64,000 nucleotides of DNA from positions 20,150 through 84,149 of IMG/VR virus record IMGVR_UViG_3300001765_000034; one strand, written 5' to 3'. Below the pieces are notes generated by a model, which was not told where the DNA came from, ran no database searches, and was given only the letters and a program-made list of their open reading frames with translations. Positions 5,617 through 36,516 of the stretch are shown one piece after another. Source of the stretch: a virus (lineage: Duplodnaviria; Caudoviricetes). Made by a program: the position numbers and the translations under genes. Position 1 is the first letter of the stretch. Each line of letters starts with the position of its first letter.

Positions 5617-6999
5617 ATGTCATACCACCGATCATACTTCGAAAAAAATAACACCATTATAAGATATGGAAGTACAGGTTCAGAGGTTAATACGGCCAAA
5701 AATCCTAATACTGAAATATTTTACGGATCTGGGTTTTCAAAATTTATCTTTAAATTAGATTTAACTGAACTAAAAAATAAAATCTCTTCTGGCGAAAAGG
5801 TTCTTAATGAGAATACTCGTCATAATTTACGTTTAACAAACACAATATTTGGTGATGAAGATTTATTGGGTGCATTAAGAGGTACGGGAAGGCAACGTGC
5901 CGTGGCGTTCGATTTAGTATTATTCAGAATTCCCGAAAATTGGGATGAGGGTGTTGGGTATGATTATGAAGAAGCATATGATTACACCGAGGGTAATTTG
6001 ACTTTTGATATTAGACCATCAAACTGGAATATGAGAACTTCATTGAGTGGTTGGACGGAATCGGGTATCTATGCTACGTCTGGCGATACTATTACGAGAT
6101 TACATTTTGATAATGGGAACGAAAATATTGATGTTGACATAACAGATTATGTAAATGGTATAATCGTATCGGGACATACTGACCATGGATTGGGTCTTTC
6201 GTTCGATTATCCATACCAAGAGGTTGTGAGTGAAATCGATCAATCAGTTAGTTTCTTTACAAAATATACACAAACATTTTGGGAACCTCATTTAGAAACA
6301 GTTTTTGCTGATACTATTGATGATAATCGAGATAATTTCACCATTGATATAGAAAGAAATCTTTATTTGTATGTGGATTATATGGGTAATAGATATGATT
6401 TAGATAACAATCCAACGGTAGATGTTTTAGATTATAATCAACGACCGATTCCAAGTTTAACAGGACTCACAGCAACCAAAATTAGAAAAGGAGTTTATAA
6501 AGTCACTTTTGGTTTATCTGGGCAACTTTGTGATGGAAAACGATTCTATTACGATAAATGGTGTGATCTTAATATTCAGACAGTTCCTATTGATTGTGTA
6601 ACCCAAAAATTTGTTCCAAAACCTTTCGATGCTTTCTTTAGTATTGGAGGAAATGAGACGGACGCGAGTGATTATGTTATACAATTTGAGGGAGTAAAAT
6701 TAAACGAGAAAGTAAAAAGAGGATCAACCAGAAAAATAGTTGCGACTTTCCGTTCAATTTATCATCAAAAAGGCGTATTATTAGATGAAGTTTATTATAG
6801 AATTTACGTCAAAGAAGGTAGAACTCAGGTAAATGTCTTCGAATGGACTGAAATGGATAGAACCAACGAAAATTCATTCCTTTTAGACACATCATATATG
6901 ATTCCGAGAGAATACCATATTGAAATAAGAGCAAGAATTAATTCTGAAGACGTATTTTATAGAGACGAGATAAAATTCGAAATTATTTCAGAAAAATAG
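5617..6999 (+). CDS. Hypothetical virion structural protein
   Basis: 460-aa beta-rich ORF with late motif at 5599-5606; adjacent to the gp5-like gene. Confidence 0.55.
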   Translation: MSYHRSYFEKNNTIIRYGSTGSEVNTAKNPNTEIFYGSGFSKFIFKLDLTELKNKISSGEKVLNENTRHNLRLTNTIFGDEDLLGALRGTGRQRAVAFDLVLFRIPENWDEGVGYDYEEAYDYTEGNLTFDIRPSNWNMRTSLSGWTESGIYATSGDTITRLHFDNGNENIDVDITDYVNGIIVSGHTDHGLGLSFDYPYQEVVSEIDQSVSFFTKYTQTFWEPHLETVFADTIDDNRDNFTIDIERNLYLYVDYMGNRYDLDNNPTVDVLDYNQRPIPSLTGLTATKIRKGVYKVTFGLSGQLCDGKRFYYDKWCDLNIQTVPIDCVTQKFVPKPFDAFFSIGGNETDASDYVIQFEGVKLNEKVKRGSTRKIVATFRSIYHQKGVLLDEVYYRIYVKEGRTQVNVFEWTEMDRTNENSFLLDTSYMIPREYHIEIRARINSEDVFYRDEIKFEIISEK

Positions 7000-24482: not shown

Positions 24483-26486
24483 ATGGGCGTAGATTTTTTT
24501 GAAGAACCAGACAGACCAACGAAAGTAAAAAAACCGGGGTCAACAACGCCAATACTTGACAATTTTTCGAGAGATTTAACTAAGTTAGCTGAAGAAGGAA
24601 AAATTGATCCTGTTGTTGGTAGGGATAAAGAAGTGAGACGGATCGCACAAATTCTTTCTCGAAAGAAAAAGAATAATGCCGTAGTAGTCGGTGATGCTGG
24701 AGTAGGTAAAACTGCTTTAATTGAAAAACTTGCACAGATAATTGTTAAAGGTGAATGTCCAACCAGCTTGATGGATAAAAGGATAGTATCACTAGATTTG
24801 ACATCATTGGTTGCCGGAACAAAATATCGTGGGCAATTCGAAGAAAGGATTAAAGGAATATTGGTAGAACTCACAGAAAATCCCCAAATTATTTTATTCA
24901 TCGATGAATTACACATGATGGTTGGGGCTGGAAATGCAAGTGGATCAATGGATGCTTCAAATATTTTTAAACCAGCTCTTGCTCGCGGTGAGTTACAATG
25001 TATTGGATCAACAACATTTGATGAATATAAAAAACACATCGAAAAAGACTCGGCATTAACTCGAAGATTTCAGAAGGTAACGTTAAAAGAACCTACACCA
25101 CAAGAAACAATTGAAATACTTCATAATCTTAGAGATTCATATGAATCCTATCATAAGGTGAAATATACTGAGAATGTGATGGAAACAATTGTTTTACTTG
25201 CAGGAAAATATATTACCGACAGGTCATTTCCGGATAAAGCAATTGATATTTTGGATGAACTTGGAGCTGAAAAAAATATTACTATTGAAATGCCAGCATC
25301 AATTGAAAATTTAAAAGAGAAAATTGAAGAGGTTAATCAAAAGAAAAGAGACGTAGTTAAAAAACAGGACTATGAAGTTGCTGCTCAATTAAGAGATGAA
25401 GAAAAGAGATTAGTTAAAAAATTAGAAATAGAAAAACATAAATGGGAAACGGATAAAGAAACAAATAAGAATCCAATATCCATTGATGATGTTTACTCAG
25501 TTGTTACAAGTATTACTGGTGTACCCATAGCAAAACTTGATAAGAATGAAACTTCAAGTCTTTTGACCCTTGAAAAACAACTAGGTGAAAAGATCATCGG
25601 TCAAGAAGAGGCAATCTCAACCATATCAAAAGCAATAAGGAGAAACCGTGTTGGTATTAAAGGTTCAAATAAACCGATCGGTTCTTTTATGTTTTTAGGA
25701 TCAACAGGTGTTGGAAAAACTTATCTTGCAAAAACAATTGCACAACTTTTATTTGGATCGTCTGATAATATTATTAGAATTGATATGAGCGAATATATGG
25801 AGAAACATAACGTTTCCCGTCTTATTGGCTCTCCTCCAGGTTATGTTGGATATGATGAAGGTGGACAGTTGACCGAAGCCGTAAAAAATAATCCGTTTTC
25901 TGTTATCCTATTCGATGAAATTGAGAAAGCTCATAAAGACGTATATAATATGTTTTTACAAATATTGGACGAAGGACGATTAACCGATTCGTTTGGAAGA
26001 AATGTAAATTTTACCAATTGTCTTATTATCATGACATCCAATATCGGAGCACAAAAAGTGTCTGACTTTGGAAGAGGATTGGGATTCACGCAATTAACTA
26101 GGAATCAAGAACAGGATAATAAAAAATCTATTATTTTAAAGGAACTTAAAAAACATTTTAATCCTGAATTCTTAAATCGTCTCGATGGACATATTATGTT
26201 TAATCCATTAGGTGACCCCGAATTAAAGAAAATTATCTCTATTGAAATTTTAAATCTTCAGAAAAGATTATTGGAAAAAGAATACATAGTTGAATTTCAT
26301 TCATCTGTGGAGGATAGAGTTTTAGGATTAAATACTGAAGAGAATTACGGAGCGAGACCTGTAAAAAGAATCATTCAAAACCTTTGTGAAGACTTCTTGA
26401 GTGACGAAATACTTAAAGGAAACATTTTACCAAAAATACCCATCACAATAAAATATGATAAAAAAGGTGAGTTATTTATAGAATAA
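24483..26486 (+). CDS. clpC: ClpC/ClpB-family AAA+ ATPase lacking the N-terminal Clp repeat domain
   Basis: Two NBDs (GDAGVGKT/FIDELH and GSTGVGKT/LFDEIEKAH), GTKYRGQFEER, LIGSPPGYVGYDEGGQLTE, UVR-type M domain KQDYEVAAQLRD. Confidence 0.9.
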   Translation: MGVDFFEEPDRPTKVKKPGSTTPILDNFSRDLTKLAEEGKIDPVVGRDKEVRRIAQILSRKKKNNAVVVGDAGVGKTALIEKLAQIIVKGECPTSLMDKRIVSLDLTSLVAGTKYRGQFEERIKGILVELTENPQIILFIDELHMMVGAGNASGSMDASNIFKPALARGELQCIGSTTFDEYKKHIEKDSALTRRFQKVTLKEPTPQETIEILHNLRDSYESYHKVKYTENVMETIVLLAGKYITDRSFPDKAIDILDELGAEKNITIEMPASIENLKEKIEEVNQKKRDVVKKQDYEVAAQLRDEEKRLVKKLEIEKHKWETDKETNKNPISIDDVYSVVTSITGVPIAKLDKNETSSLLTLEKQLGEKIIGQEEAISTISKAIRRNRVGIKGSNKPIGSFMFLGSTGVGKTYLAKTIAQLLFGSSDNIIRIDMSEYMEKHNVSRLIGSPPGYVGYDEGGQLTEAVKNNPFSVILFDEIEKAHKDVYNMFLQILDEGRLTDSFGRNVNFTNCLIIMTSNIGAQKVSDFGRGLGFTQLTRNQEQDNKKSIILKELKKHFNPEFLNRLDGHIMFNPLGDPELKKIISIEILNLQKRLLEKEYIVEFHSSVEDRVLGLNTEENYGARPVKRIIQNLCEDFLSDEILKGNILPKIPITIKYDKKGELFIE

Positions 26487-27833: not shown

Positions 27834-29057
27834 TTATAGCTTTATTGCTAGTATAAGCATATCGTCTACTTGGTCAAAATCACCCTGCCATGTGTTTAAT
27901 TTTTGTTCAAGTAAGTCTTTTTGATATGATAACCCCAAATGTTGAAACGACATTAACATTTCAATAAAATTTTTTTTCATTAATTTTTTATTTTTCGTTC
28001 CACCAAATTGGTCAACTACACCGTCACTGAACATATAAATTACGTCGCCAATTCGATATGGTATTTCTTGAGTTGCAAAGGTTTTTTTAATTTCTTTGTT
28101 AATTCCACCTATATTATATGGTTCGCCTTTGATTTCAACCATATCTTTATCCCTACTTCTATAAATTAATAATGGGCGGCTACATCCTGAAAAATATAAT
28201 TTCTTATGATTTTTGTCTATGGTAACGAATGCAATATCGATACCGTCTTGATACCCGCTTGAAACACCTTGTTTTAAAAATGTGGTTAGGTTTAAATCGA
28301 GTAACGATAACACATCTGTTGGATGGGTGAAATCATTTTCAGCAATTTCATTTAAGAAATTCGTACCAATCATAGATAATAATGCACCGGACACCCCATG
28401 ACCGCTACAATCTGCGGCGGTTACCATTACCTCATCGTCCTTTTTATAAAACCAATAGAAGTCACCACTTACAATGTCTTTTGGACGATATATTATAAAT
28501 GCATCCTTAAAATCTTTTAAAAGTATATCAATTTTTGGTAAAGTTACTTTTTGGATTCGTTCTGCAAACATAATACTTTGAGTCATTGATTTGTTTTTCT
28601 CGTCAATAAGACTATTTGCAGCGATTAACTCGTTGTTTAATTTTTCTAATTTTTTTGCTTCAGTAATATATTGTCGTTGAAGTTGTGCCGAATTAATAAT
28701 ATGAGGTAAATGAAGTAAATGGTCTTTTAATATGTAATCGTCCATACCTTCTTTAAGAAGTTCGATTGCAAATTCTTCCGGAATATCACCAGATGAGAGA
28801 ATAAAAATAACATTAGGATTTATACTTTTTGAATCGGCGAACGATTTAAACGAATTATAATTAGGAATAGTGTGTTCCGATATTACAACATCAGGATTAA
28901 CTCGTGTCAACGCATTTATAAAATCATGTCCAGTTTCACAATGGGTTATATGATGTGTATATCCAAAATTAACTAAAACCTCTTTAATTTTTTTCGCGTC
29001 TTCTTTAGAATTATCTAATATTATTATTTTTGTATTTGCTTTTACGTCATTAGTCAT
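27834..29057 (-). CDS. Receiver-domain plus PP2C/SpoIIE (RsbU-like) phosphatase
   Basis: REC fold N-terminus (PDVVISEH, DDYILK); PP2C motifs VSGDFYW, AADCSGHGVSGA, FSDGVVDQFGG, QVDDML; start placed at ATG 29057. Confidence 0.85.
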   Translation of the reverse strand: MTNDVKANTKIIILDNSKEDAKKIKEVLVNFGYTHHITHCETGHDFINALTRVNPDVVISEHTIPNYNSFKSFADSKSINPNVIFILSSGDIPEEFAIELLKEGMDDYILKDHLLHLPHIINSAQLQRQYITEAKKLEKLNNELIAANSLIDEKNKSMTQSIMFAERIQKVTLPKIDILLKDFKDAFIIYRPKDIVSGDFYWFYKKDDEVMVTAADCSGHGVSGALLSMIGTNFLNEIAENDFTHPTDVLSLLDLNLTTFLKQGVSSGYQDGIDIAFVTIDKNHKKLYFSGCSRPLLIYRSRDKDMVEIKGEPYNIGGINKEIKKTFATQEIPYRIGDVIYMFSDGVVDQFGGTKNKKLMKKNFIEMLMSFQHLGLSYQKDLLEQKLNTWQGDFDQVDDMLILAIKL

Positions 29058-29102
29058 ATTAATAAATACCATAATTGATGTCAAAGCAAAATTTATTTTT
29101 TT

Positions 29103-30415: not shown

Positions 30416-31141
30416 ATGAAAAAATCGTTAACGGAAGAAGCCCAAAGGATTATGGAGATAATGGGAAAAATGAATTTAACTGAATTAAATGTACGATATA
30501 TGGACCAGTTACTCGATAAAATTAGTAAATCTGGTATGGAATCATTAAGTGATTACGAAAAAGAATCGTTACAAAAACTTTCAAGAGGTGAAGATACAAA
30601 AGAACCGGAAATCCATTCTCTCGGTAAATCTGAAAACACATTGAGGTTTACCACCACCGACCAAAATAATGGCCAACCACTTGCTAGACCAAAAGACGCT
30701 GGACAGACATTCGGTAAAGCCGCTCTTAAAAACGCTTATATACATGGTGAAGCAGCAGAACTTGCTGGATATGATTTACCTGTTTTTATCGATGGTGATT
30801 TATCACAATTAGATAAACCCGTAGAAGAACAAGAAATTAGGATGTTAACCAATAAAGGTGAATATGAGTGCGTTTCTGAGGTAGGCGAAGATGATGGTCG
30901 TCAGGTATATTATCTTGTATTAAAAAAACCAGAAGGTGACGAATCCGATTTTGATGATGAAGTGATGGGACTTAACGAAAATATGTCACAATATAATGTC
31001 TTCAACGATACTGAAATGAGTATTAATGAGGGAAACGCGTTTGTTGGAGCAGCCAAGAAAGCGAAAGAAGATGGAAAAGATAGTTTTGAATTAAATGGAA
31101 AAAAATATAAAGTAACGGTTAAGAAAACCGAACAATATTAA
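30416..31141 (+). CDS. Hypothetical protein (possible internal head protein)
   Basis: Start at ATG 30416, MKKSLTEEAQRIMEIMG N-terminus. Confidence 0.65.
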   Translation: MKKSLTEEAQRIMEIMGKMNLTELNVRYMDQLLDKISKSGMESLSDYEKESLQKLSRGEDTKEPEIHSLGKSENTLRFTTTDQNNGQPLARPKDAGQTFGKAALKNAYIHGEAAELAGYDLPVFIDGDLSQLDKPVEEQEIRMLTNKGEYECVSEVGEDDGRQVYYLVLKKPEGDESDFDDEVMGLNENMSQYNVFNDTEMSINEGNAFVGAAKKAKEDGKDSFELNGKKYKVTVKKTEQY

Positions 31142-31175
31142 AATAACATATATTTATTATATAAAAACCGATAAA

Positions 31176-31532
31176 ATGAAAAAAACGTTAGAAGAACAAA
31201 AAAAGAGAATAACTCAACTTATGAGACCTATTAACGAATTAATTCATGTTAACGATATGGATTTAGACGGTGAAAATACAAATTTTGATTCGTCTCAAGA
31301 ATTAAAACCCATTATGGATCAATTAAAAGATGCAATGAGGAAATATCAAGAACTATCAAAAAGAACACCTGTTCCAGGAACTGGAAGTCCTTATCCGACT
31401 GAAAACCTAAAGGAGTCTTTTTTGAAGTGGATGTCATTTATGTGGGAAAGAGTTAAAGAAGGTAACGATTCCGTTGAAGGACAGCTCAAGAATTACCCTA
31501 TTAAACCTAATGATCCAACAGAAATGAATTAA
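31176..31532 (+). CDS. Hypothetical protein (possible internal head protein)
   Basis: MKKTLEEQKKRITQLM N-terminus, late motif at 31151. Confidence 0.65.
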   Translation: MKKTLEEQKKRITQLMRPINELIHVNDMDLDGENTNFDSSQELKPIMDQLKDAMRKYQELSKRTPVPGTGSPYPTENLKESFLKWMSFMWERVKEGNDSVEGQLKNYPIKPNDPTEMN

Positions 31533-31579
31533 TTTAGTTCTCAATAAAATAAAAATAATTAAACATTTTTTAAAAAACA

Positions 31580-31611
31580 TTTGGCAAATCCAAAAAAATG
31601 ATTTACATTTG
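31580..31611 (+). promoter_or_regulatory. Bacteroidota sigma-A-type promoter of tRNA array 1
   Basis: TTTG at 31580-31583 and TACATTTG at 31604-31611, 20-nt spacing. Confidence 0.75.
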
Positions 31612-31662
31612 TACCATAATTGAGAAAAAACAAAATTTGAACATATTTAATATAAAGAAACA

Positions 31663-31761
31663 ATGAGAAATTTACTCGACATATTATTGGTGGCTGCAGC
31701 GGTTGAAGTCCTATTATGGGCTGATGAGGATGCACGAAAAAATGTCGGGTGTAAAATATAA
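31663..31761 (+). CDS. Leader peptide of tRNA array 1, MRNLLDILLVAAAVEVLLWADEDARKNVGCKI
   Basis: 32-codon ORF with an A-rich upstream region, overlapping attenuator segments 1 and 2. Confidence 0.7.
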   Translation: MRNLLDILLVAAAVEVLLWADEDARKNVGCKI

Positions 31762-31819
31762 CTATTTACATACATGTTCTACTTAAAGAACCCGACATCT
31801 ACCAAGAGTCGGGTTTTTT
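31671..31819 (+). promoter_or_regulatory. Four-segment transcription attenuator upstream of tRNA array 1
   Basis: 1 ACTCGACAT 31674-82; 2 ATGTCGGGT 31742-50; 3 AACCCGACAT 31789-98; 4 GTCGGGTT 31808-15 plus T-run; 1:2, 2:3 and 3:4 are all complementary. Confidence 0.75.
31789..31819 (+). terminator. Attenuator terminator (3:4)
   Basis: AACCCGAC/GTCGGGTT stem with inner TCT/AGA pairs, followed by a T-run. Confidence 0.85.
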
Positions 31820-31836
31820 GTTTTTAGGTATGTATT

Positions 31837-31848
31837 GTTCTTTGACAT
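31837..31848 (+). promoter_or_regulatory. boxA-like antitermination element
   Basis: GTTCTTTGACAT, identical copy at 34589, resembles rrn boxA (GCTCTTTAACA). Confidence 0.55.
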
Positions 31849-31859
31849 GATGGAAATTT

Positions 31860-31933
31860 AGTGCGTTAGTTCAGTTGGCTAGAATGCCGCCCTGTCACGG
31901 CGGAGGTCACGGGTTCGAGCCCCGTACGCACTG
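31860..31933 (+). tRNA. tRNA-Asp(GUC)
   Basis: AGTGCGT/ACGCACT acceptor, CCGCC-CTGTCAC-GGCGG anticodon arm, TTCGAGC T-loop; no encoded CCA. Confidence 0.95.
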
Positions 31934-32045
31934 CAATCTCAACCGAAAGTAAGTAGGTTACTGGTGAAGCGGGGGTGAGGACCCTAAGCTGATGGGTTCG
32001 AAGCCCACCAGCGCATGAAAAGCAAAAAACAGTTTGGGGATTATC

Positions 32046-32116
32046 GAGGCCGTCGTATAATGGCTAGTAGTACCGCCCTGTCACGGCGGAGGAGGGGTTC
32101 GAATCCCACGGTCTCG
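32046..32116 (+). tRNA. tRNA-Asp(GUC), second copy
   Basis: GAGGCCG/CGGTCTC acceptor, same anticodon arm, short variable loop. Confidence 0.85.
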
Positions 32117-32118
32117 GC

Positions 32119-32288
32119 TATTCTTTAGTGTAATTGAGTTAGGATTGAAAGGAGTCATGACCTGGAGATTACTATACGAAGAAACATCAATCCTGTAATC
32201 ACGGCCGGGGTTATTAGGGGAGATGATTTTTAGTGAGAGCATACCGGGCATGCGGCTCGGAGGTGAGGTTAGAGACCTTAAAGAATAA
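32119..32288 (+). ncRNA. tRNA-like element with about 100 nt inserted in the D-loop
   Basis: TATTCTT/AAGAATA acceptor, GTGT/GCAT D-stem, CCGGG-CATGCGG-CTCGG arm, TGAGG-TTAGAGA-CCTTA T-like arm. Confidence 0.4.
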
Positions 32289-32328
32289 AAAATACTGTGT
32301 TAGGTAAATGGTAATAAATGTTAAAACA

Positions 32329-32439
32329 ATGAAGAAGAAAGAAACGTCTGGAAATTCTAGACAAAAAGTAGATTTCAAAGTAATTCCAAAAGAAGAACTT
32401 GAAAAAAATCGAAGTAAGGCATATGATTACTTGATTTAA
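32329..32439 (+). CDS. Small basic ORF within tRNA array (36 aa)
   Basis: MKKKETSGNSRQKVDFKVIPKEELEKNRSKAYDYLI with an A-rich upstream region. Confidence 0.4.
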   Translation: MKKKETSGNSRQKVDFKVIPKEELEKNRSKAYDYLI

Positions 32440-32454
32440 GTATGGTATTTAAAC

Positions 32455-32528
32455 GCTGCGTTAGGCAAATTGGTTAAGCCGTCAGACCTTCAATCTGAAG
32501 ATTAGGGGTTCGACCCCCCTACGCAGTA
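32455..32528 (+). tRNA. tRNA-Glu(UUC), C33 variant
   Basis: GCTGCGT/ACGCAGT acceptor, TCAGA-CCTTCAA-TCTGA arm. Confidence 0.88.
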
Positions 32529-32620
32529 CGAGGTTCAGTGTGAAATAGAAAGGTTTCTGAGGTTTGTTCATACTGAGGTTCAGTATAACCTTGATTATAG
32601 GTCAAAAAAAATCTCGCCAC

Positions 32621-32692
32621 GCTCGGTTCGTCTAACGGTCAGGACAAATGGTTTTCATCCATTAAATAGGAGTTCGATTCTCCTACCGAGTA
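32621..32692 (+). tRNA. tRNA-Glu(UUC)
   Basis: GCTCGGT/ACCGAGT acceptor, AATGG-TTTTCAT-CCATT arm. Confidence 0.93.
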
Positions 32693-32735
32693 CTTTAATT
32701 TTTTGTATTCTCTTAGTATTTATTTTAAACATTAT

Positions 32736-32820
32736 GCTCCTTTAGCTCAGCGGTCAAGAGCACCTGTTTTACAAGCAGGAGGCGAATAGTATCACGGTGG
32801 TTCGAATCCATCAAGGAGTA
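32736..32820 (+). tRNA. tRNA-Val(UAC) with long variable region
   Basis: GCTCCTT/AAGGAGT acceptor, CCTGT-TTTACAA-GCAGG arm, 16-nt variable region. Confidence 0.88.
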
Positions 32821-32939
32821 CATACGGTTAGGACCGTTATAGCTACGGCTATTAGGGGTGGGATGTTCGCTGCTGACCACCCCTTTATTTTAATTATCCC
32901 ACAAATTTTATAGATAGATGAACAAAGAGATTAAATAAT

Positions 32940-33023
32940 CTCGAAGTGGCGGAATTGGTAGACGCGCTAGCCTAAGGAGCTAGTTCCCGAAAGGGAGTGT
33001 GGGTTCGAGTCCCACCTTCGAGA
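32940..33023 (+). tRNA. tRNA-Leu(AAG)
   Basis: CTCGAAG/CTTCGAG acceptor, CTAGC-CTAAGGA-GCTAG arm, TCCC-GAAA-GGGA variable arm. Confidence 0.92.
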
Positions 33024-33164
33024 CAAAAGGTTCATGACGGAACTAAGCAGATGTTGACCGCGTAACCTGTGCCGAGTGTTCTTGGATGTGAAGGAGTAAT
33101 ACCTTCAGACTCATTATGTGGATCTGCAAAAGCGTAATGGTTGAACTACTAAAAAGGCACAAAT

Positions 33165-33248
33165 GCAGACGTGGCGGAATTGGTAGACGCGCCAGACTTA
33201 GGATCTGGTGCCCGGAAGGGCGTGTGGGTTCGAGTCCCACCTTCTGTA
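33165..33248 (+). tRNA. tRNA-Leu(UAG)
   Basis: CCAGA-CTTAGGA-TCTGG arm, class II variable arm. Confidence 0.93.
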
Positions 33249-33303
33249 CGTTTAGACCGTTTAGAATTTTTATTAGTACTGAAGTAGCGTAGAAAATTCA
33301 CTT

Positions 33304-33375
33304 GGGGAATTCGTATAGTGGCTATTATAATTGCCTTGCACGCAATGGACGGGGTTTCGATTACCCCATTCTCCA
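33304..33375 (+). tRNA. tRNA-Ala(UGC)
   Basis: GGGGAAT/ATTCTCC acceptor with G3:U70, ATTGC-CTTGCAC-GCAAT arm. Confidence 0.92.
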
Positions 33376-33403
33376 CTTTGACGGTTCGGAAAGACGAACA
33401 AAC

Positions 33404-33478
33404 GCGGGTGTAGCTCAGCTGGCTAGAGCGTCTGATTTGCAATCAGAAGGTCGTGGGTTCGAAGCCCACTACTCTGCA
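33404..33478 (+). tRNA. tRNA-Ala(UGC), second copy with bulged acceptor
   Basis: TCTGA-TTTGCAA-TCAGA arm, G3:U pair, one extra nucleotide in the 3' acceptor strand. Confidence 0.8.
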
Positions 33479-33594
33479 CAGGAGGGGTAGATTTATCAGG
33501 AGTCCTATTGATACGGATGAATACCCAGCATGGTGTGGTTACTATTTAAAATGAAACCGTCAGCAAAACTACATACGATGAAAAAGTAACAAAT

Positions 33595-33674
33595 GGCTCT
33601 GTGGATTATGTAAACTGGCACAGCTAACGGGCTTAAACCCCGATCTTTTGTGGGTTCGAGTCCCACCAGGGCTA
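33595..33674 (+). tRNA. Atypical tRNA with UAA (Leu) anticodon
   Basis: GGCTCTG/CAGGGCT acceptor, CGGG-CTTAAAC-CCCG arm, normal T arm; 7-nt connector before the D stem; no long variable arm. Confidence 0.7.
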
Positions 33675-33680
33675 CAATTA

Positions 33681-33814
33681 TATTTCGTGGTGGAATTGGT
33701 ATACACACCTGACTGAATCCCAAAAATGGATTACCTATATGCGGGCTGGATCGGGCGTTTAAGTAGTAAGGTATTCTACGAAAGAAATTGCGGGTTCGAG
33801 TCCCGTCGAAATGT
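33681..33814 (+). tRNA. Class II tRNA body with about 50 nt inserted in the anticodon loop (intron-like or pseudo-tRNA)
   Basis: TATTTCG/CGAAATG acceptor, GTG-GAATTGGTATA-CAC D arm, GCGGG-TTCGAGT-CCCGT T arm; anticodon arm interrupted. Confidence 0.55.
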
Positions 33815-33822
33815 AATTATTC

Positions 33823-33902
33823 GGCTCTGTGGATTATGTAAACTGGCACAGCTAACCGGCTCAAACCCGGATCTTTTGTGGGTTCGATTCCCACCAGGGC
33901 TA
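33823..33902 (+). tRNA. Atypical tRNA with CAA (Leu) anticodon, twin of 33595-33674
   Basis: Same body apart from one T-loop base, CCGG-CTCAAAC-CCGG arm. Confidence 0.7.
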
Positions 33903-33944
33903 CTATATTTTTGATTTTTTCCATATTTATAATAAACTGAAAGT

Positions 33945-34121
33945 ATGTGGCAATATAAACGTATTGGATATCAATTTCATTTATTAAGAGACATGGAAGC
34001 TCAACTAAATAAAGATGGTGAGGATGGTTGGGAAATCATCTATTATACCGAAACAAAACCTGTAAAATTATCTGATTATTATGTCTCAGATATACTTTAC
34101 AAAAAATACGTCAATTGCTGA
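33945..34121 (+). CDS. DUF4177-like small protein
   Basis: MWQYK...LNKDGEDGWEII pattern; late motif at 33924; 3' end overlaps tRNA-Trp. Confidence 0.6.
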   Translation: MWQYKRIGYQFHLLRDMEAQLNKDGEDGWEIIYYTETKPVKLSDYYVSDILYKKYVNC

Positions 34122-34190
34122 GTGGTTAAAAGCGTTGGTCTCCAAAACCAATCTCGAAAGAGTTCGTGGGTTCGAATCCTACTTGGCGTG
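34108..34190 (+). tRNA. tRNA-Trp(CCA) with long variable arm
   Basis: ACGTCAA/TTGGCGT acceptor, G73, TTGGT-CTCCAAA-ACCAA arm, CTC-GAAA-GAG variable hairpin. Confidence 0.88.
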
Positions 34191-34307
34191 CAAAAATTTC
34201 CATCTAGTCTGTATTAACATTAACTATTAGAAATGAGGAGATTACATTAAGTTAATAATTAACTTAAATAAAAAATCTTTAATTTAATAAGAAAGTTTAA
34301 CTTTTAC

Positions 34308-34338
34308 TTGGTATTTATAATTTTATTACATATATTTG
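34308..34338 (+). promoter_or_regulatory. Promoter region of tRNA array 2 (host-type -7 box plus late motif)
   Basis: TTG at 34308-10, TATTTATA at 34312-19, TATATTTG at 34331-38. Confidence 0.7.
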
Positions 34339-34360
34339 TACAGAATTAATATTTGAAACA

Positions 34361-34441
34361 ATGAGAACTTTATTACATCAGCGCCCCCAAGGACAACCAC
34401 CAGTGGTTGAACGGGAGACTTGTGTTCTAAATTTTTCGTAA
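34361..34441 (+). CDS. Leader peptide of tRNA array 2, MRTLLHQRPQGQPPVVERETCVLNFS
   Basis: 26-codon ORF whose start context GAAACAATGAGAA is identical to leader 1. Confidence 0.7.
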   Translation: MRTLLHQRPQGQPPVVERETCVLNFS

Positions 34442-34500
34442 TTCGAGAGTTTTTAGATTAGACAAAAGAAACCCCGTTCAGTAATGAATGGGGTTTTTTT
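34383..34500 (+). promoter_or_regulatory. Transcription attenuator upstream of tRNA array 2
   Basis: 1:2 hairpin CAACCA/TGGTTG (34394-99/34404-09); 2:3 TGAACGGG/CCCGTTCA (34408-15/34473-80); 3:4 terminator. Confidence 0.72.
34469..34500 (+). terminator. Attenuator terminator (3:4)
   Basis: AAACCCCGTTCA-GTAA-TGAATGGGGTTT followed by a T-run. Confidence 0.85.
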
Positions 34501-34508
34501 ATTTAAAA

Positions 34509-34583
34509 CTGGGTGTATTGCAGATGGTTATACTACCGTGCCCTGGAAGCACGGGTCCGCAGGTTCGAATCCTGCCACCCAGA
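34509..34583 (+). tRNA. tRNA-Pro(UGG), C33/A37 variant
   Basis: CTGGGTG/CACCCAG acceptor, A73, CGTGC-CCTGGAA-GCACG arm. Confidence 0.88.
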
Positions 34584-34588
34584 CGATT

Positions 34589-34600
34589 GTTCTTTGACAT
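34589..34600 (+). promoter_or_regulatory. boxA-like antitermination element
   Basis: GTTCTTTGACAT, identical to 31837-31848. Confidence 0.55.
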
Positions 34601-34605
34601 TTAAT

Positions 34606-34692
34606 GCACCTGTATCCCCCTAGTCTTCGAAACTTTCGAAACTAGAGAGCGGTAATTGGATGAGAATATGGGTTCGAATCCCTTCAGGTGTA
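34606..34692 (+). ncRNA. tRNA-like element with rearranged arms and a UCG anticodon-like loop
   Basis: GCACCTG/CAGGTGT acceptor, TTCGAAT T-loop; CTAGT-CTTCGAA-ACT(AG) directly after the acceptor, 9-nt duplication TTCGAAACT, GGTAATTGG afterwards. Confidence 0.5.
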
Positions 34693-34698
34693 CAATTC

Positions 34699-34770
34699 GC
34701 ACCCGTAGTTCAATGGATAGAACACTAGACTACGGATCTTGAGATTGAGGTTCGAGTCCTCCCGGGTGTA
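34699..34770 (+). tRNA. tRNA-Arg(ACG)
   Basis: GCACCCG/CGGGTGT acceptor, CTAGA-CTACGGA-TCTTG arm. Confidence 0.9.
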
Positions 34771-34828
34771 CAATTATCGGTTAAATAACCTATAAATATA
34801 ATTTATCGGTTGTGGAGACGATAAATTT

Positions 34829-34913
34829 CGGGATGTGGTGTAGTTGGTAGCATACGTGTTTTGGGAACATGGGGGAACGCAAGTCATCGCAGGTTCGAGT
34901 CCTGCCATCCCGA
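34829..34913 (+). tRNA. tRNA-Pro(UGG) with long variable region
   Basis: CGGGATG/CATCCCG acceptor, CGTGT-TTTGGGA-ACATG arm with G37. Confidence 0.9.
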
Positions 34914-34916
34914 CTA

Positions 34917-35054
34917 AAGTTAATCGTCCGTCATATGAAGATTTAATAACAGAAATAAATATTTTTGGATACTCAGCAACTGGCAGAAAATATGGAGTAA
35001 GTGACGTGTCAATAAAAAAATGGAAAGAAAAATATGAAAAAGATTTAATAAATG
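34917..35054 (+). pseudogene. Remnant HTH domain of an HNH-type homing endonuclease
   Basis: Reading frame KVNRPSYEDLITEINIFGYSATGRKYGVSDVSIKKWK without its own start or nuclease domain, between tRNA-Pro and tRNA-His. Confidence 0.5.
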
Positions 35055-35140
35055 GTGTATGTAGCCGGTAATTGGTGTCCGACCAGCCTGTGAAGCTGGA
35101 ATCTGAAAAGACCATGTGGGTTCAAGTCCCATCATTCACC
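35054..35140 (+). tRNA. tRNA-His(GUG) with long variable arm
   Basis: G-1:C73 identity pair, CCAGC-CTGTGAA-GCTGG arm, TCT-GAAA-AGA variable hairpin. Confidence 0.88.
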
Positions 35141-35182
35141 CAAAAGCGTGATATTTTGATTTATCACTTTATTACGCGATAT

Positions 35183-35255
35183 TGTCTCGTAGTGTAATTG
35201 GTAACATGTCTGGCTCTGGACCAGAAGACTGGGGAATCGTACTCCTCCGAGACAA
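35183..35255 (+). tRNA. tRNA-Gln(CUG), atypical T-loop ATCGTAC
   Basis: TGTCTCG/CGAGACA acceptor, TCTGG-CTCTGGA-CCAGA arm. Confidence 0.85.
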
Positions 35256-35264
35256 CAACTATAT

Positions 35265-35338
35265 TGCCCTGTGGTGTAATTGGTTAACATACGGCACTTT
35301 GGATGCTGTGACTCAAGGTTCGAACCCTTGCGGGGCAA
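35265..35338 (+). tRNA. tRNA-Gln(UUG)
   Basis: TGCCCTG/CGGGGCA acceptor, CGGCA-CTTTGGA-TGCTG arm. Confidence 0.93.
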
Positions 35339-35344
35339 CAATAT

Positions 35345-35430
35345 TCTCCTCTGGCAGAATGGACAAATGCGCCAGACTTTGACTCTGGTACCCATATTCG
35401 GGTTTGTAGGTTCGAGTCCTACGGGGAGGA
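35345..35430 (+). tRNA. Class II-type tRNA with UUG (Gln) anticodon
   Basis: TCTCCTC/GGGGAGG acceptor, CCAGA-CTTTGAC-TCTGG arm, ACCC-ATATTC-GGGT variable arm. Confidence 0.8.
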
Positions 35431-35472
35431 CAAATTTGGAAATGTCAAATATTATACTTATCTTTGTCAAAT

Positions 35473-35556
35473 GCCGAGATGATGGAATTGGCAGACATGC
35501 AGCACTTAAAATGCTGTGGGCATTTGCTCGTGTGGGTTCGAGTCCCATTCTCGGTA
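35473..35556 (+). tRNA. tRNA-Leu(UAA), canonical
   Basis: GCCGAGA/TCTCGGT acceptor, CAGCA-CTTAAAA-TGCTG arm, class II variable arm. Confidence 0.95.
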
Positions 35557-35575
35557 CAATAATAAATGATTAGAT

Positions 35576-36313
35576 ATGTACATCATTTCAAAAACGAAAG
35601 ATTATTACGATGGGGTTGTCGGTACAGTGGGTATCGATAAGTCAATTGTATATGATCGCAACACCGTAATTAACGAAAATAGGGAGACATTTATAGATCC
35701 ATTTTCGGCGAGAAAGGGTTGGCATAAAAGGAATATTACTCCATTTCATAACATATGTTCTCACTCAATTAAAAAGGGGTCGAGATATGAAGATGGCTCG
35801 CCATTCATTGTTGGGTTTTGTGGAAAATTATACATAGGGTGGAAATTTTATAAAGAGGATTTTGATAGTTTTTATGGCACGAAATTCGAAACTTTCATCA
35901 CTTATGATTTAGAATTCATCAAAAATGAGATAACACATAAGAGTTGGTATGGTAATTTAATTGATGACATCAATTACATTTTAACATATAATCCATTGGA
36001 AATCTTTAGAAAACTAAAAACCCCGATATTTATATACGATAGTGATTATGACAGAAAGTTCATTAAAAGATACCACCGTAATGATGTTCTCATTACAAAC
36101 CCCATACTAAAAGATTATGAGTTTTATAAAGTAATGGATAGCTTTACTGCTTTCCAAGAAATTCAAATGTTTATGGGTGGAGTATTAGGTATCGGAGAAA
36201 AAGAAATCGTTGAAGTTGAGGACAAATATAAAATCTCCCAACATGGATTCAACGAATTTAGTTTTCGTAGAGACAAAGCAAATGGAAAAAAAAGACCACA
36301 ATCCCAAAGATAA
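35576..36313 (+). CDS. Hypothetical phage protein
   Basis: 245-aa ORF directly after tRNA array 2. Confidence 0.75.
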   Translation: MYIISKTKDYYDGVVGTVGIDKSIVYDRNTVINENRETFIDPFSARKGWHKRNITPFHNICSHSIKKGSRYEDGSPFIVGFCGKLYIGWKFYKEDFDSFYGTKFETFITYDLEFIKNEITHKSWYGNLIDDINYILTYNPLEIFRKLKTPIFIYDSDYDRKFIKRYHRNDVLITNPILKDYEFYKVMDSFTAFQEIQMFMGGVLGIGEKEIVEVEDKYKISQHGFNEFSFRRDKANGKKRPQSQR

Positions 36314-36482
36314 TAAACCCCAAATAGGTTTAATGGAGTATGTTCGATTGCAACAAAATGTGACCGAAGATATTGATATGCTTAAGGCATTATCGCGACC
36401 ATGGATACCACCCAACACAGATAAAATTTACTGTGGATCAGACCTTGCAGACCAACTACAAGGTCTTTTGAATTTAAAATAA
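36282..36482 (+). CDS. Small hypothetical protein
   Basis: Start placed at ATG 36282 (MEKKDH), 66 aa. Confidence 0.5.
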   Translation: MEKKDHNPKDNKPQIGLMEYVRLQQNVTEDIDMLKALSRPWIPPNTDKIYCGSDLADQLQGLLNLK

Positions 36483-36516
36483 TAGGTGATTTTCTTGGAA
36501 AATAAGAAAATATTGT

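Follow-up and report, generated by a model that had tools for sequence, protein, structure and literature searches.

Codon-matched leader peptides as likely transcription attenuators of phage tRNA operons

The two tRNA operons in the window, by which we mean the whole 64,000-nt stretch of phage DNA analysed, are very likely controlled by leader-peptide (ribosome-mediated) transcription attenuators, and each tRNA set is probably made only when ribosomes run short of those tRNAs. The evidence of the window alone is suggestive; the related loci make the case decisive, and the comparative data strongly back the attenuator interpretation. The anatomy of the units, their conservation, the match between leader codons and downstream tRNAs, the covariation seen in the antiterminator and the leaders' coding signature are direct observations. 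Leader-peptide attenuation is known for amino-acid genes; an earlier reading of the DNA from sequence only knew of no described attenuator of tRNA genes, and our literature search likewise found no description of tRNA-gene attenuators of this design.

Both units have the common upstream architecture that the sequence-only reading had proposed, with its parts in the places described (Table 1). A segment in the 3' part of each leader ORF pairs perfectly with the 5' arm of the intrinsic terminator: AUGUCGGGU (31742-31750, region 2) is the exact 9-nt complement of ACCCGACAU in unit 1, and UGAACGGG is the exact complement of CCCGUUCA in unit 2. The start context GAAACAATGAGAA occurs exactly twice in the window, once at each leader start; with one mismatch allowed it has three matches, a number reached in 0/100 shuffles. 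The boxA-like sequence GTTCTTTGACAT also occurs exactly twice. Folds of leaders 1 and 2 each give a leader hairpin and a terminator hairpin followed by a U-tract (z = -3.7 and -4.9, respectively).

Some parts of that proposal needed adjustment. Bacteroidota -7 motifs are present in both promoters, but promoter 2 has a weak -33 element. Both terminators were recovered by folding, direct reading and a dedicated scan, but are absent from the list of a simple terminator scan. The boxA-like site lies ahead of the tRNAs in unit 1, whereas the first tRNA-Pro precedes it in unit 2. ARAGORN called 17 tRNAs between 31860 and 35557, and Rfam added the second Ala(UGC) of array 1 at 33404-33478. Among the four Leu anticodons attributed to array 1, AAG and UAG were called (ARAGORN/Rfam), while UAA and CAA occur only in non-canonical tRNA-like genes, homologous to short-variable-arm tRNAs called by ARAGORN in relatives. 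The proposed residue bias is clearest in leader 1, which consists to 68% of D/E/V/L/A/W residues and ranks 1st among the 303 short ORFs of the window; leader 2 ranks only 12th for its residue set. Codons 4-14 of leader 2 are UUA UUA CAU CAG CGC CCC CAA GGA CAA CCA CCA, and the tRNAs of array 2 read every one of them except GGA.

Table 1 Features of the two tRNA units in the window.
Feature	Position	Strand	Details
Unit 1	31580-34191	+	Promoter, leader ORF, antiterminator segment, terminator, boxA-like box, tRNAs
Promoter 1	31580-31611	+	-33 TTTG 31580-31583; -7 TACATTTG 31604-31611; spacing 20 nt; direct reading
Leader ORF 1	31663-31761	+	32 codons, MRNLLDILLVAAAVEVLLWADEDARKNVGCKI*; D/E/V/A/L/W ('GNN') class
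Region 1, unit 1	31673-31682	+	UACUCGACAU, codons 4-7; pairs with region 2 (MFE fold); anti-antiterminator
Region 2, unit 1	31742-31751	+	AUGUCGGGUG; alternative partners region 1 or region 3 (antiterminator)
Terminator 1	31784-31825	+	Region 3 ACCCGACAU 31790-31798; region 4 GUCGGGU 31808-31814; U-tract 31814-31825
boxA-like box, unit 1	31837-31848	+	GTTCTTTGACAT, 11 nt 5' of first tRNA
tRNA array 1	31860-34191	+	Asp x2, Glu x2, Val, Leu(AAG), Leu(UAG), Ala(UGC) x2, Trp
tRNA-like genes, array 1	33594-33676, 33822-33904	+	Non-canonical; UAA and CAA anticodon loops
Small ORF within array 1	33945-34121		
Unit 2	34331-35557	+	-7 promoter motif, leader ORF, antiterminator segment, terminator, tRNAs, boxA-like box
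Promoter 2, -33 element	34308-34311	+	Only TTGG, weak
Promoter 2, -7 motif	34331-34338	+	TATATTTG; direct reading
Leader ORF 2	34361-34441	+	26 codons, MRTLLHQRPQGQPPVVERETCVLNFS*; P/H/Q/R ('CNN') class
Region 1, unit 2	34380-34388	+	AGCGCCCCC, Gln-Arg-Pro codons; pairs with GGG of region 2 (MFE fold)
Region 2, unit 2	34408-34415	+	UGAACGGG, codons V16-R18
Terminator 2	34470-34500	+	Region 3 CCCGUUCA 34473-34480; region 4 UGAAUGGGG 34485-34493, one G.U; U-tract 34494-34500
tRNA array 2	34509-35557	+	Pro, Arg(ACG), Pro, His, Gln(CUG), Gln(UUG) x2, Leu(UAA)
boxA-like box, unit 2	34589-34600	+	3' of first tRNA-Pro

The comparison set comprised about 170 related loci, most of which are fragments of jumbo phages of 320-365 kb. 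Had homologous arrays lacked a conserved leader ORF or codon concordance, the attenuator proposal would have been in difficulty; the homologous arrays of these loci keep leader ORF, antiterminator and terminator. We counted 152 terminator-to-tRNA units in about 160 of the loci (63 GNN, 61 CNN, 28 KY), and leader 1 has orthologues in 45 distinct related units. The leaders fall into four classes, D/E/V/A/L/W (GNN), P/H/Q(/R) (CNN), K/Y (KY) and T/S/N/I/C/G/F/R (TSN), which together cover nearly the whole codon table. The fourth class is present in all of the 10 loci inspected for it, and CheckV rates nine of these records as 100% complete; about 80% of its leader residues belong to the named set, and it stands ahead of Thr/Ser/Asn/Ile/Cys/Gly/Phe/Arg arrays. 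Complete relatives have four attenuator units each. It had been predicted that tRNAs absent from the window would sit behind leaders enriched in their own residues, and this holds for Lys/Tyr (28 K/Y-rich units) and for the Thr/Ser/Asn/Ile/Cys/Gly/Phe arrays but fails for Met: tRNA-Met usually has no leader but follows a protein gene, together with Leu(UAA) and Leu(CAA), and some Leu tRNAs are likewise found in leaderless arrays. In 101/108 distinct related units, the promoter motif TAnnTTTG lies no more than 130 nt upstream of the leader (background 0.82 per kb). A boxA-like match lies within 120 nt past the terminator in 38/41 GNN, 12/42 CNN and 5/25 KY units; the background is 0.07 matches per kb per strand.

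Leader composition follows the downstream tRNA set. Mean leader-to-array concordance was 0.448, compared with 0.226 ± 0.015 when arrays were permuted, and was reached in 0/10,000 permutations; the other two reading frames gave 0.10-0.18 in the three large classes. Measured as fold enrichment over the phage proteome, GNN leaders favour L (3.3), A (3.1), W (3.0), V (2.3) and D (2.2), with M at 2.1, C at 1.9, E at 1.05 and the rest at most 0.6. CNN leaders favour Q (7.1), P (4.6) and H (4.5), with V at 1.5 and the rest at most 1.2, and KY leaders favour Y (4.7) and K (3.0), with all others at most 1.3. For TSN leaders the values are C 3.3, S 3.0, R 2.2, G 2.0, T 1.9, I 1.7, N 1.7 and F 1.2, with the others at most 0.47. 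The match extends to synonymous codons: CGN makes up 84% of the Arg codons of CNN leader cores (CGC 68%) compared with 37% in genes, in agreement with tRNA-Arg(ACG/UCG), and leader Leu codons are also skewed to the anticodons of their own array. Within classes, a leader CGN codon accompanies an array tRNA-Arg (counts 13/1/0/19) and Val in the leader core accompanies tRNA-Val (33/2/0/4), although each pattern represents few independent events and the Fisher tests of this co-variation are inflated by kinship. On the tree of a neighbouring protein the Arg trait changes four times, of which only one change is forced by well-supported branches.

The alternative RNA helices are conserved, and compensatory changes were found in the 2:3 and 3:4 helices, as the attenuator proposal had led one to look for. 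The 2:3 helix is 96.2% paired in CNN units (alignment A3), with compensatory UA<->CG changes in six sequences and AU<->GC in two, and 92.6% paired in GNN units (alignment A2), with compensatory change at five pairs (18 cells); this support was reached by 0/500 shuffles in both classes, and slid controls were at most 62% paired. The 3:4 helix of the unit 2 type is 100% paired with three compensatory pairs, and terminator 1 was recovered with compensatory pairs in the RNAalifold consensus. The antiterminator of unit 2 is wholly Watson-Crick, while the terminator contains a G.U pair in the window and in 22/36 relatives. The 1:2 helix of GNN units has a 7-bp core with 88-100% pairing in the alignment, but without covariation. 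In the MFE structure, the partner of region 2 is formed by regulatory codons in 35/36 CNN leaders, where these are P/Q/H codons, in 34/36 GNN leaders and in 15/20 KY leaders.

From these features we infer leader translation, ribosome stalling, regulated read-through and a role for the boxA-like box. Host RNA polymerase would initiate at the Bacteroidota-type promoter and transcribe the short leader ORF, whose central codons are those decoded by the tRNAs encoded downstream. When these are decoded quickly, the ribosome would advance over region 2 in the last codons of the ORF, or region 2 would re-pair with region 1 after its passage; region 3 would then be free to pair with region 4, forming the terminator and leaving the tRNA genes off. 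If the matching charged tRNAs are scarce, a ribosome kept close to the polymerase by putative transcription-translation coupling would stall on the regulatory codons, covering region 1 and leaving region 2 free to capture region 3 once transcribed, so that no terminator forms and the polymerase enters the tRNA array. The boxA-like site probably makes the polymerase processive over kilobases of untranslated RNA, acting, we infer, in NusB/NusE-type antitermination. As the operon products would relieve the stall, each unit would form a negative-feedback loop on its own tRNA supply. The natural trigger may be simple supply/demand feedback or tRNA cleavage by host defences. If this mechanism is true, the four units of complete relatives regulate supply for nearly the whole codon table.

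Folding of the nascent transcript with a 28-nt ribosome mask, the A site being moved along the leader, is consistent with such a switch. The antiterminator formed in 90-100% of units for every A-site position between the start and about four codons before region 2; from two codons before region 2 up to the stop, 0% of GNN and CNN units formed it. At equilibrium, the full leader retains the terminator as MFE even with the ribosome mask, and the switch can thus work only kinetically, as does the classical trp attenuator, judged by its helix energies. The stop codon lies 8 nt past region 2 in leader 1. It lies 26-27 nt past region 2 in leader 2 of the window and in the K/Y class, so a ribosome paused there would re-expose region 2 and termination would have to use 1:2 refolding.

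The same switch might respond to amino-acid starvation (uncharged tRNA), as biosynthetic attenuators do, and not to tRNA abundance or integrity. Since stalling reports charged tRNA, the architecture fits either signal. Extra tRNA gives no relief from starvation, however, which would make the output illogical, and leader codons track array anticodons, for example CGN and not AGR with Arg(ACG/UCG), which fits sensing at the isoacceptor level; we regard a starvation signal as unlikely. It is very unlikely that the leaders sense translation capacity or transcription-translation coupling in general and respond to any ribosome slowdown without codon specificity: the masked folds do yield the antiterminator for any early stall, but class-specific codons and their co-variation with the tRNA repertoire would be needless.

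Slimmer still are the chances that the leaders are ordinary micro-peptide genes with their own terminators, the tRNA arrays being transcribed independently or by constitutive read-through. GNN-class peptides are indeed hydrophobic and membrane-peptide-like, and the N-termini (MKNL, MRT) are conserved, yet the same RNA architecture serves four chemically unlike peptide families, each of which mirrors its own tRNA set; region 2 is conserved as RNA, co-varying with the terminator arm, and, in the window, we noted no promoter motif in the stretch leading from a terminator to its tRNAs. Conservation of regions 1-4 at the RNA level would also suit an RNA-only element (a riboswitch, T-box or protein-binding site) with an incidental reading frame, which we consider the least credible explanation. 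Against it, the leader frame is open in 92/101 units compared with 17/202 for the other frames, third codon positions are the most variable (entropy 0.95 and 1.14, compared with 0.68-0.74 at positions 1 and 2) and indels within the leader ORF are mostly multiples of three. At gathering score, Rfam found no family except tRNA in the region, with no T-box, riboswitch or leader-family similarity.

As ribosome-mediated attenuators, the phage units resemble those of amino-acid biosynthesis (trpL, hisL, leuL, thrL, pheL, ilvGMEDA) in a putatively translated leader rich in regulatory codons and a four-region RNA (1:2, 2:3, 3:4) whose intrinsic terminator precedes the genes under control. Regulatory codons are likewise found in region 1, region 2 is located at the end of the ORF or close to it, and a single leader samples several amino acids, a trait shared with the multivalent ilvGMEDA and thr leaders. 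They differ in that the targets are tRNAs and not enzymes, the sensed molecule would be the operon's own product, and a phage-encoded set of up to four leaders, with 2 to 8 amino acids each, divides the codon table; they also have a boxA-like site past the terminator and lack similarity to Rfam leader families. Aminoacyl-tRNA synthetase attenuators, such as the pheST leader pheM and the His leader that precedes hisS paralogues in bacilli (PMC2965389), similarly place a component of the translation apparatus under leader-peptide attenuation, but control a protein gene and sense one amino acid, in contrast to tRNA arrays behind multivalent leaders. T-box riboswitches also convert the state of a specific tRNA into a choice between terminator and antiterminator; they act by direct binding of uncharged tRNA, need no translation and regulate synthetase or amino-acid genes, whereas the phage leaders have a conserved reading frame. 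In sequence, GTTCTTTGACAT is similar to the boxA of rRNA operons (GCTCTTTAACAA in E. coli, GTTCTTTGAAAA in Firmicutes), which acts in Nus antitermination, and it too is at the start of a long untranslated unit. The phage box differs in lying in a tRNA operon downstream of an attenuator, with NusB/NusE binding putative, and we treat the resemblance as a lead only.

A leader and terminator before tRNA genes are also found in an independent lineage: the cultured Caulobacter phage CcrRogue has MSKSYRQFVQIQVVRNFRAGRSRMDDGGTFI* and a terminator ahead of tRNAs for Phe, Val, Ile, Ile, Val, Gln, Gln and Arg.

The 84-kb contig of this virus (34.6% G+C) confines its tRNA genes to 31860-35557, where ARAGORN identifies 17 tRNAs and Rfam adds a second tRNA-Ala(UGC) and weak tRNA-like matches. 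The genes fall into two arrays. The sequence-only reading had described one upstream architecture common to both, and its elements were all located: a TAnnTTTG promoter motif, a leader open reading frame (ORF) with the start context GAAACAATGAGAA (two exact copies), a hairpin with a U-tract 3' of the ORF and, as the last part of the module, the box GTTCTTTGACAT (two exact copies). The two terminators are seen by folding and are absent from the output of a simple terminator scan. Near the end of each leader ORF lies a segment exactly complementary to the 5' arm of the terminator, which in the minimum free energy (MFE) fold pairs instead with early ORF codons, those of unit 2 being CGC-CCC. The units exhibit the topology of a classical attenuator, in which four RNA regions form an anti-antiterminator (1:2), an antiterminator (2:3) and a terminator (3:4). 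When the window's 303 short ORFs are ranked by residue set, leader 1 comes first and leader 2 twelfth; judged from the window alone, the residue match is suggestive.

Features of the two tRNA units and their surroundings (window positions)
Feature	Unit 1 or only position	Unit 2	Description
-7 promoter motif	31604-31611	34331-34338	TAnnTTTG, Bacteroidota-type
Leader ORF	31663-31761	34361-34441	Unit 1 MRNLLDILLVAAAVEVLLWADEDARKNVGCKI; unit 2 MRTLLHQRPQGQPPVVERETCVLNFS
Early codons pairing with the terminator-complementary segment	31673-31682		UACUCGACAU
Terminator-complementary segment	31742-31750	34408-34415	Unit 1 AUGUCGGGU; unit 2 UGAACGGG
Terminator 5' arm	31790-31798	34473-34480	Unit 1 ACCCGACAU; unit 2 CCCGUUCA
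tRNA array	31860-34191	34509-35557	Unit 1 Asp x2, Glu x2, Val, Leu(AAG), Leu(UAG), Ala x2, Trp; unit 2 Pro x2, Arg(ACG), His, Gln x3, Leu(UAA)
tRNA copies with long variable region	32736-32821, 34108-34191	34829-34914, 35055-35141, 35345-35431	84-87 nt
Near-identical tRNA-like genes	33594-33676, 33822-33904		Anticodon loops UAA and CAA
Further tRNA-like pieces	31935-32020, 33681-33814	34604-34694
58-codon ORF	33945-34121		MWQYKRIGYQFHLL..; overlaps start of tRNA-Trp
Putative endonuclease remnant		34915-35050	..GYSATGRKYGVSDVSIKKW..; between tRNA-Pro and tRNA-His
245-aa protein	35576-36310		Search anchor
Minus-strand neighbours	24483-26486, 27834-29084		ClpB-like double AAA+ ATPase; receiver-PP2C fusion

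INPHARED holds no close phage, and blastn of the region gave only tRNA-level matches. The 118-aa protein encoded upstream has no relatives in IMG/VR. The start context GAAACAATGAGAANTTTA has 34 matches in IMG/VR, none adjoining tRNAs; they were rejected as related units and treated as chance matches. The 245-aa protein encoded directly downstream has many relatives, although it belongs to no Pfam family, and as a search anchor it led to ~160 loci from IMG/VR and from JGI or ENA metagenomes. Many of these lie on contigs of 200-365 kb. Among the records searched, nine have a completeness rating of 100%, of which three have terminal repeats; the four complete records scanned for tRNAs contain 53-65 tRNA matches per genome. 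The tRNA partition is constant across relatives: Pro/His/Gln with or without Arg, Asp/Glu/Val/Leu/Ala/Trp, Leu(UAA)/Leu(CAA)/Met, and Lys/Tyr.

A neutral pipeline, which took an intrinsic terminator, a tRNA at most 700 nt downstream of it and then short ORFs upstream, returned 155 units. They comprise 63 units of the GNN class (D/E/V/A/L/W, as leader 1), 61 of the CNN class (P/H/Q with or without R, as leader 2), 28 of a K/Y class and 3 others. The leader ORF was picked blind to composition, by the requirement that it span the segment complementary to the terminator arm, and was obtained in 137 of the 155. Typical leaders, each ended by a stop codon, are MKNLLDILMVALEAVLLWAADEDKLRSVG (GNN), MKNLVNIQPQPQQHPQDGEWGKYA (CNN) and, abridged before the stop, MRTFGTYYYGKKSYKKQLIGIGNSMSK.. 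(K/Y).

To look for a fourth class, complete relatives were searched as whole records and the stretch 12-32 kb downstream of the anchor was retrieved. A scan with a pattern for this class (TSN; T/S/N/I/C/G/F/R) found only previously collected loci, and further members came from the whole-genome records. The corresponding array (Thr, Cys, Asn, Ile, Ser, Phe, Gly, Arg, sometimes Met) is present in all nine complete genomes and in one fragment. Its leaders, such as MKTTVSSRTISISTSISRNGNSIFCSNFGGRSRNDIGLLFS and MKTLTTNIFSSISTTTSRIGRTIFCSNFIGRNSNVSGILFS, each followed by a stop, have region 2 and the terminator as in the other classes; T/S/N/I/C/G/F/R make up on average 80% of their residues, compared with 31% in the leaders of the other classes. 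It had been predicted that tRNAs missing from the window would sit elsewhere behind leaders rich in their own residues. The K/Y and TSN classes bear this out, but tRNA-Met is usually leaderless; as a rule, it and its Leu companions are the only tRNAs without a leader.

Leaders match their own arrays. The mean leader-to-array concordance is 0.448, compared with 0.226 ± 0.015 when arrays are permuted, and none of 10,000 permutations is as high; the leader-codon to downstream-anticodon agreement proposed for the window extends to its relatives. Read in the other two frames, the same leader nucleotides give 0.10-0.18 in the three large classes. Relative to the phage proteome, all four leader classes are enriched 2- to 7-fold for residues decoded by the downstream tRNAs: Q 7.1x, P 4.6x and H 4.5x in CNN leaders; Y 4.7x and K 3.0x in K/Y leaders; L, A, W, V and D 2.2-3.3x in GNN leaders, which are also enriched for M (2.1x) and C (1.9x) but not for E (1.05x); and C, S, R, G, T, I, N and F 1.2-3.3x in TSN leaders, where all other residues stand at 0.47 or less. 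Codon choice follows the same pattern. CGN codons account for 84% of Arg codons in CNN leader cores versus 37% in genes, which fits tRNA-Arg(ACG/UCG), and GNN leaders overuse CUA and CUC, in keeping with the Leu(UAG) and Leu(AAG) tRNAs. Within the CNN class a CGN codon in the leader tracks tRNA-Arg in the array (counts 13/1/0/19), and within the GNN class Val in the leader core tracks tRNA-Val (33/2/0/4), although Fisher p-values overstate independence here because the Arg trait changes few times on the tree of the neighbouring protein. Four changes are needed on that tree, only one of them forced by well-supported branches, and an independent-pairs test on it, with too few supported contrasts, gave no significance.

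The alignments argue for an alternative RNA helix. RNAalifold on the GNN alignment gave the terminator only, and the alternative helices were specified by hand. Across the 36 sequences of the CNN alignment the 2:3 helix is 96% paired, with UA<->CG exchanges in six sequences and AU<->GC exchanges in two; none of 500 shuffles reaches the observed level, and slid controls attain at most 62%. The 3:4 terminator helix of the same sequences is 100% paired and runs into a U-tract. In the GNN alignment (35 sequences) the 2:3 helix is 93% paired, with compensatory change at five pairs and in 18 cells (0/500 shuffles). At one related locus, L131, regions 2 and 4 both change from GGG to GAG in concert with CCC to CUC in region 3. 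The antiterminator is wholly Watson-Crick; the terminator often contains a G.U pair. MFE folds of 84 of 92 leaders contain the 1:2 helix, in which region 1 falls on the regulatory codons (P-Q-Q-H; L-L-D; Y-G-K-K-S). Of the helices for which covariation was to be checked, the antiterminator thus shows compensatory changes but the 1:2 helix does not; the core of the latter is conserved and invariant, so covariation is uninformative about it either way. Between region 2 and the terminator, the GNN class also has a conserved small hairpin, GUAAUA..UAUUAC (e.g. related locus L137:8000-8045), and a conserved pyrimidine box, CUCCUUUCUU.

Equilibrium folds of the full leader with a masked ribosome footprint keep the terminator and rarely flip to the antiterminator, and the choice between the two must therefore be kinetic. 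They were replaced by folds of the nascent transcript ending at the terminator loop, again with the ribosome masked. The antiterminator forms in 90-100% of units for every A-site position between the start and ~4 codons short of region 2; from 2 codons before region 2 through the stop, it forms in 0% of GNN and CNN units. In these models, a ribosome at the leader end would block region 2 and an upstream stall would free it in the GNN class and in most CNN units. The stop codon of most GNN leaders overlaps region 2 (GUCGGGUAA). The stop lies 26-27 nt beyond region 2 in K/Y leaders and in leader 2 of the window; the nascent-transcript folds show region 2 re-exposed there, so that termination must depend on refolding of 1:2. 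As modelled, the position of its stop codon is the weakest mechanistic point of window unit 2.

The leader frame is open across the 20 codons preceding region 2 in 92 of 101 units, compared with 17 of 202 for the other frames. Third codon positions are the most variable, gaps within the leader ORF are mostly multiples of three, and the ORF starts with ATG in an A-rich context. This coding signature indirectly supports translation of the leader. Upstream, TAnnTTTG occurs in 101 of 108 distinct units; we take it to be a promoter of the Bacteroidota sigma-A type, and the likeness points to a Bacteroidota host and to transcription by the host polymerase. A boxA-like box, which may correspond to rrn boxA, lies 3' of the terminator in 38 of 41 GNN units but is less frequent in other classes; it may recruit an antitermination complex for the long untranslated array. 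Searching 31000-36500 against Rfam (E ≤ 1) yielded no leader, riboswitch or T-box family match. Only tRNA reached its gathering score, and the other matches listed, far below their own thresholds, were to Plastid-ycf2, tsr31, YrlA and the tmRNA 3' end.

Codon-matched leader-peptide attenuation of phage tRNA operons is, with high probability, the best explanation of these sequence patterns and folding models. The sequence-only reading had reached this interpretation from the window, and in the relatives it is backed by the concordance, the antiterminator covariation and the conserved leader frame. Classical leader-peptide attenuators regulate genes for amino-acid biosynthesis, transport or aminoacyl-tRNA synthetases; here, in contrast, the genes behind the proposed attenuators are tRNA arrays. 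A full-text literature search found leader-peptide attenuators of amino-acid, synthetase and resistance genes and none of tRNA genes, so that such control appears to be unpublished. The design is not unique to the window, since Caulobacter phage CcrRogue carries MSKSYRQFVQIQVVRNFRAGRSRMDDGGTFI, ended by a stop, and a terminator immediately before the tRNA genes Phe, Val, Ile, Ile, Val, Gln, Gln and Arg. In the same phage, a Pro-Lys-Leu block is preceded by a 45-aa protein annotated as 'hypothetical' and rich in L/S/T/A/K/P. An analogous unit in cultured Caulobacter phages makes the attenuator idea directly testable at the bench.

A broader proposal, which we advance tentatively and consider somewhat less probable than its contrary, is that the four leaders constitute a phage-borne system of decoding surveillance, an inducible and self-limiting counter-defence combined with a tRNA homeostat, which would have originated at least twice, in the unrelated lineages of Bacteroidota-type jumbo phages and phiCbK-like phages of Caulobacter. 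Each leader would keep real-time watch over a single partition of the codon table. Loss of host tRNAs belonging to that partition, whether cut by anticodon nucleases or degraded as the host is shut off, would switch on the replacement tRNAs, as would a phage codon demand that exceeds the host supply; recovery of the supply would switch the replacements off. The natural trigger could be tRNA loss induced by a defence, host tRNA decay or plain supply-and-demand feedback.

tRNA genes are generally thought to be controlled at initiation, by growth rate and the stringent response. Codon-specific feedback on them would, if true, add a new principle to the regulation of the translation apparatus and would help to explain why large phages carry tRNA arrays of fixed composition. 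It would also reveal which tRNAs become limiting in infection, with a bearing on the arms race with anticodon nucleases and tRNA-depleting defences. Compact and modular, the leaders could be used as sensors of how fast chosen codon sets are decoded and possibly as reporters of tRNA availability.

The tRNA region has further peculiarities. In the window and its relatives, several isoacceptors occur as a canonical copy of 73-76 nt together with a longer copy, with an extra stretch in the variable region of Val, Trp, Pro, His and Gln tRNAs, which normally lack one. Called by neither ARAGORN nor Rfam, two near-identical tRNA-like genes combine acceptor and T arms with an aberrant D region; among their homologues in relatives are 'Leu' tRNAs with a short variable arm (e.g. 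locus L039:9592), which ARAGORN does call. Of three further tRNA-like pieces, one has a ~60-nt insert (Rfam 29.5 bits) and two are T-arm-bearing fragments between called tRNAs. Array 1 also contains a 58-codon ORF. The segment between tRNA-Pro and tRNA-His appears to be what is left of an HNH-type homing endonuclease, namely its C-terminal helix-turn-helix part, and ORFs sharing its C-terminal motif lie directly upstream of tRNAs in relatives (L035:~580-1030, L035:~6300-6746 and L038:~2700-3152).

Complete jumbo relatives encode a tRNA with anticodon CUA (L195:18037, L196:16908, L197:17314, L198(rc):18524, L191:~12500 and L230(rc), where rc denotes the reverse complement), which in L191 lies within the Lys/Tyr array. 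It would be an amber suppressor and hints at TAG recoding in part of these genomes. Unlike the window's contig, many relatives have a tmRNA, located just downstream of the anchor gene (L036:11032-11400, L037:4031-4390, L038:11033-11392) and encoding tags such as AEDIMSIPTSLTRG..AELAIAA. On the minus strand, the window encodes two neighbouring proteins that are unusual regulatory cargo in a phage, a double AAA+ ATPase resembling ClpB and a response-regulator receiver domain fused to a PP2C (SpoIIE) phosphatase.
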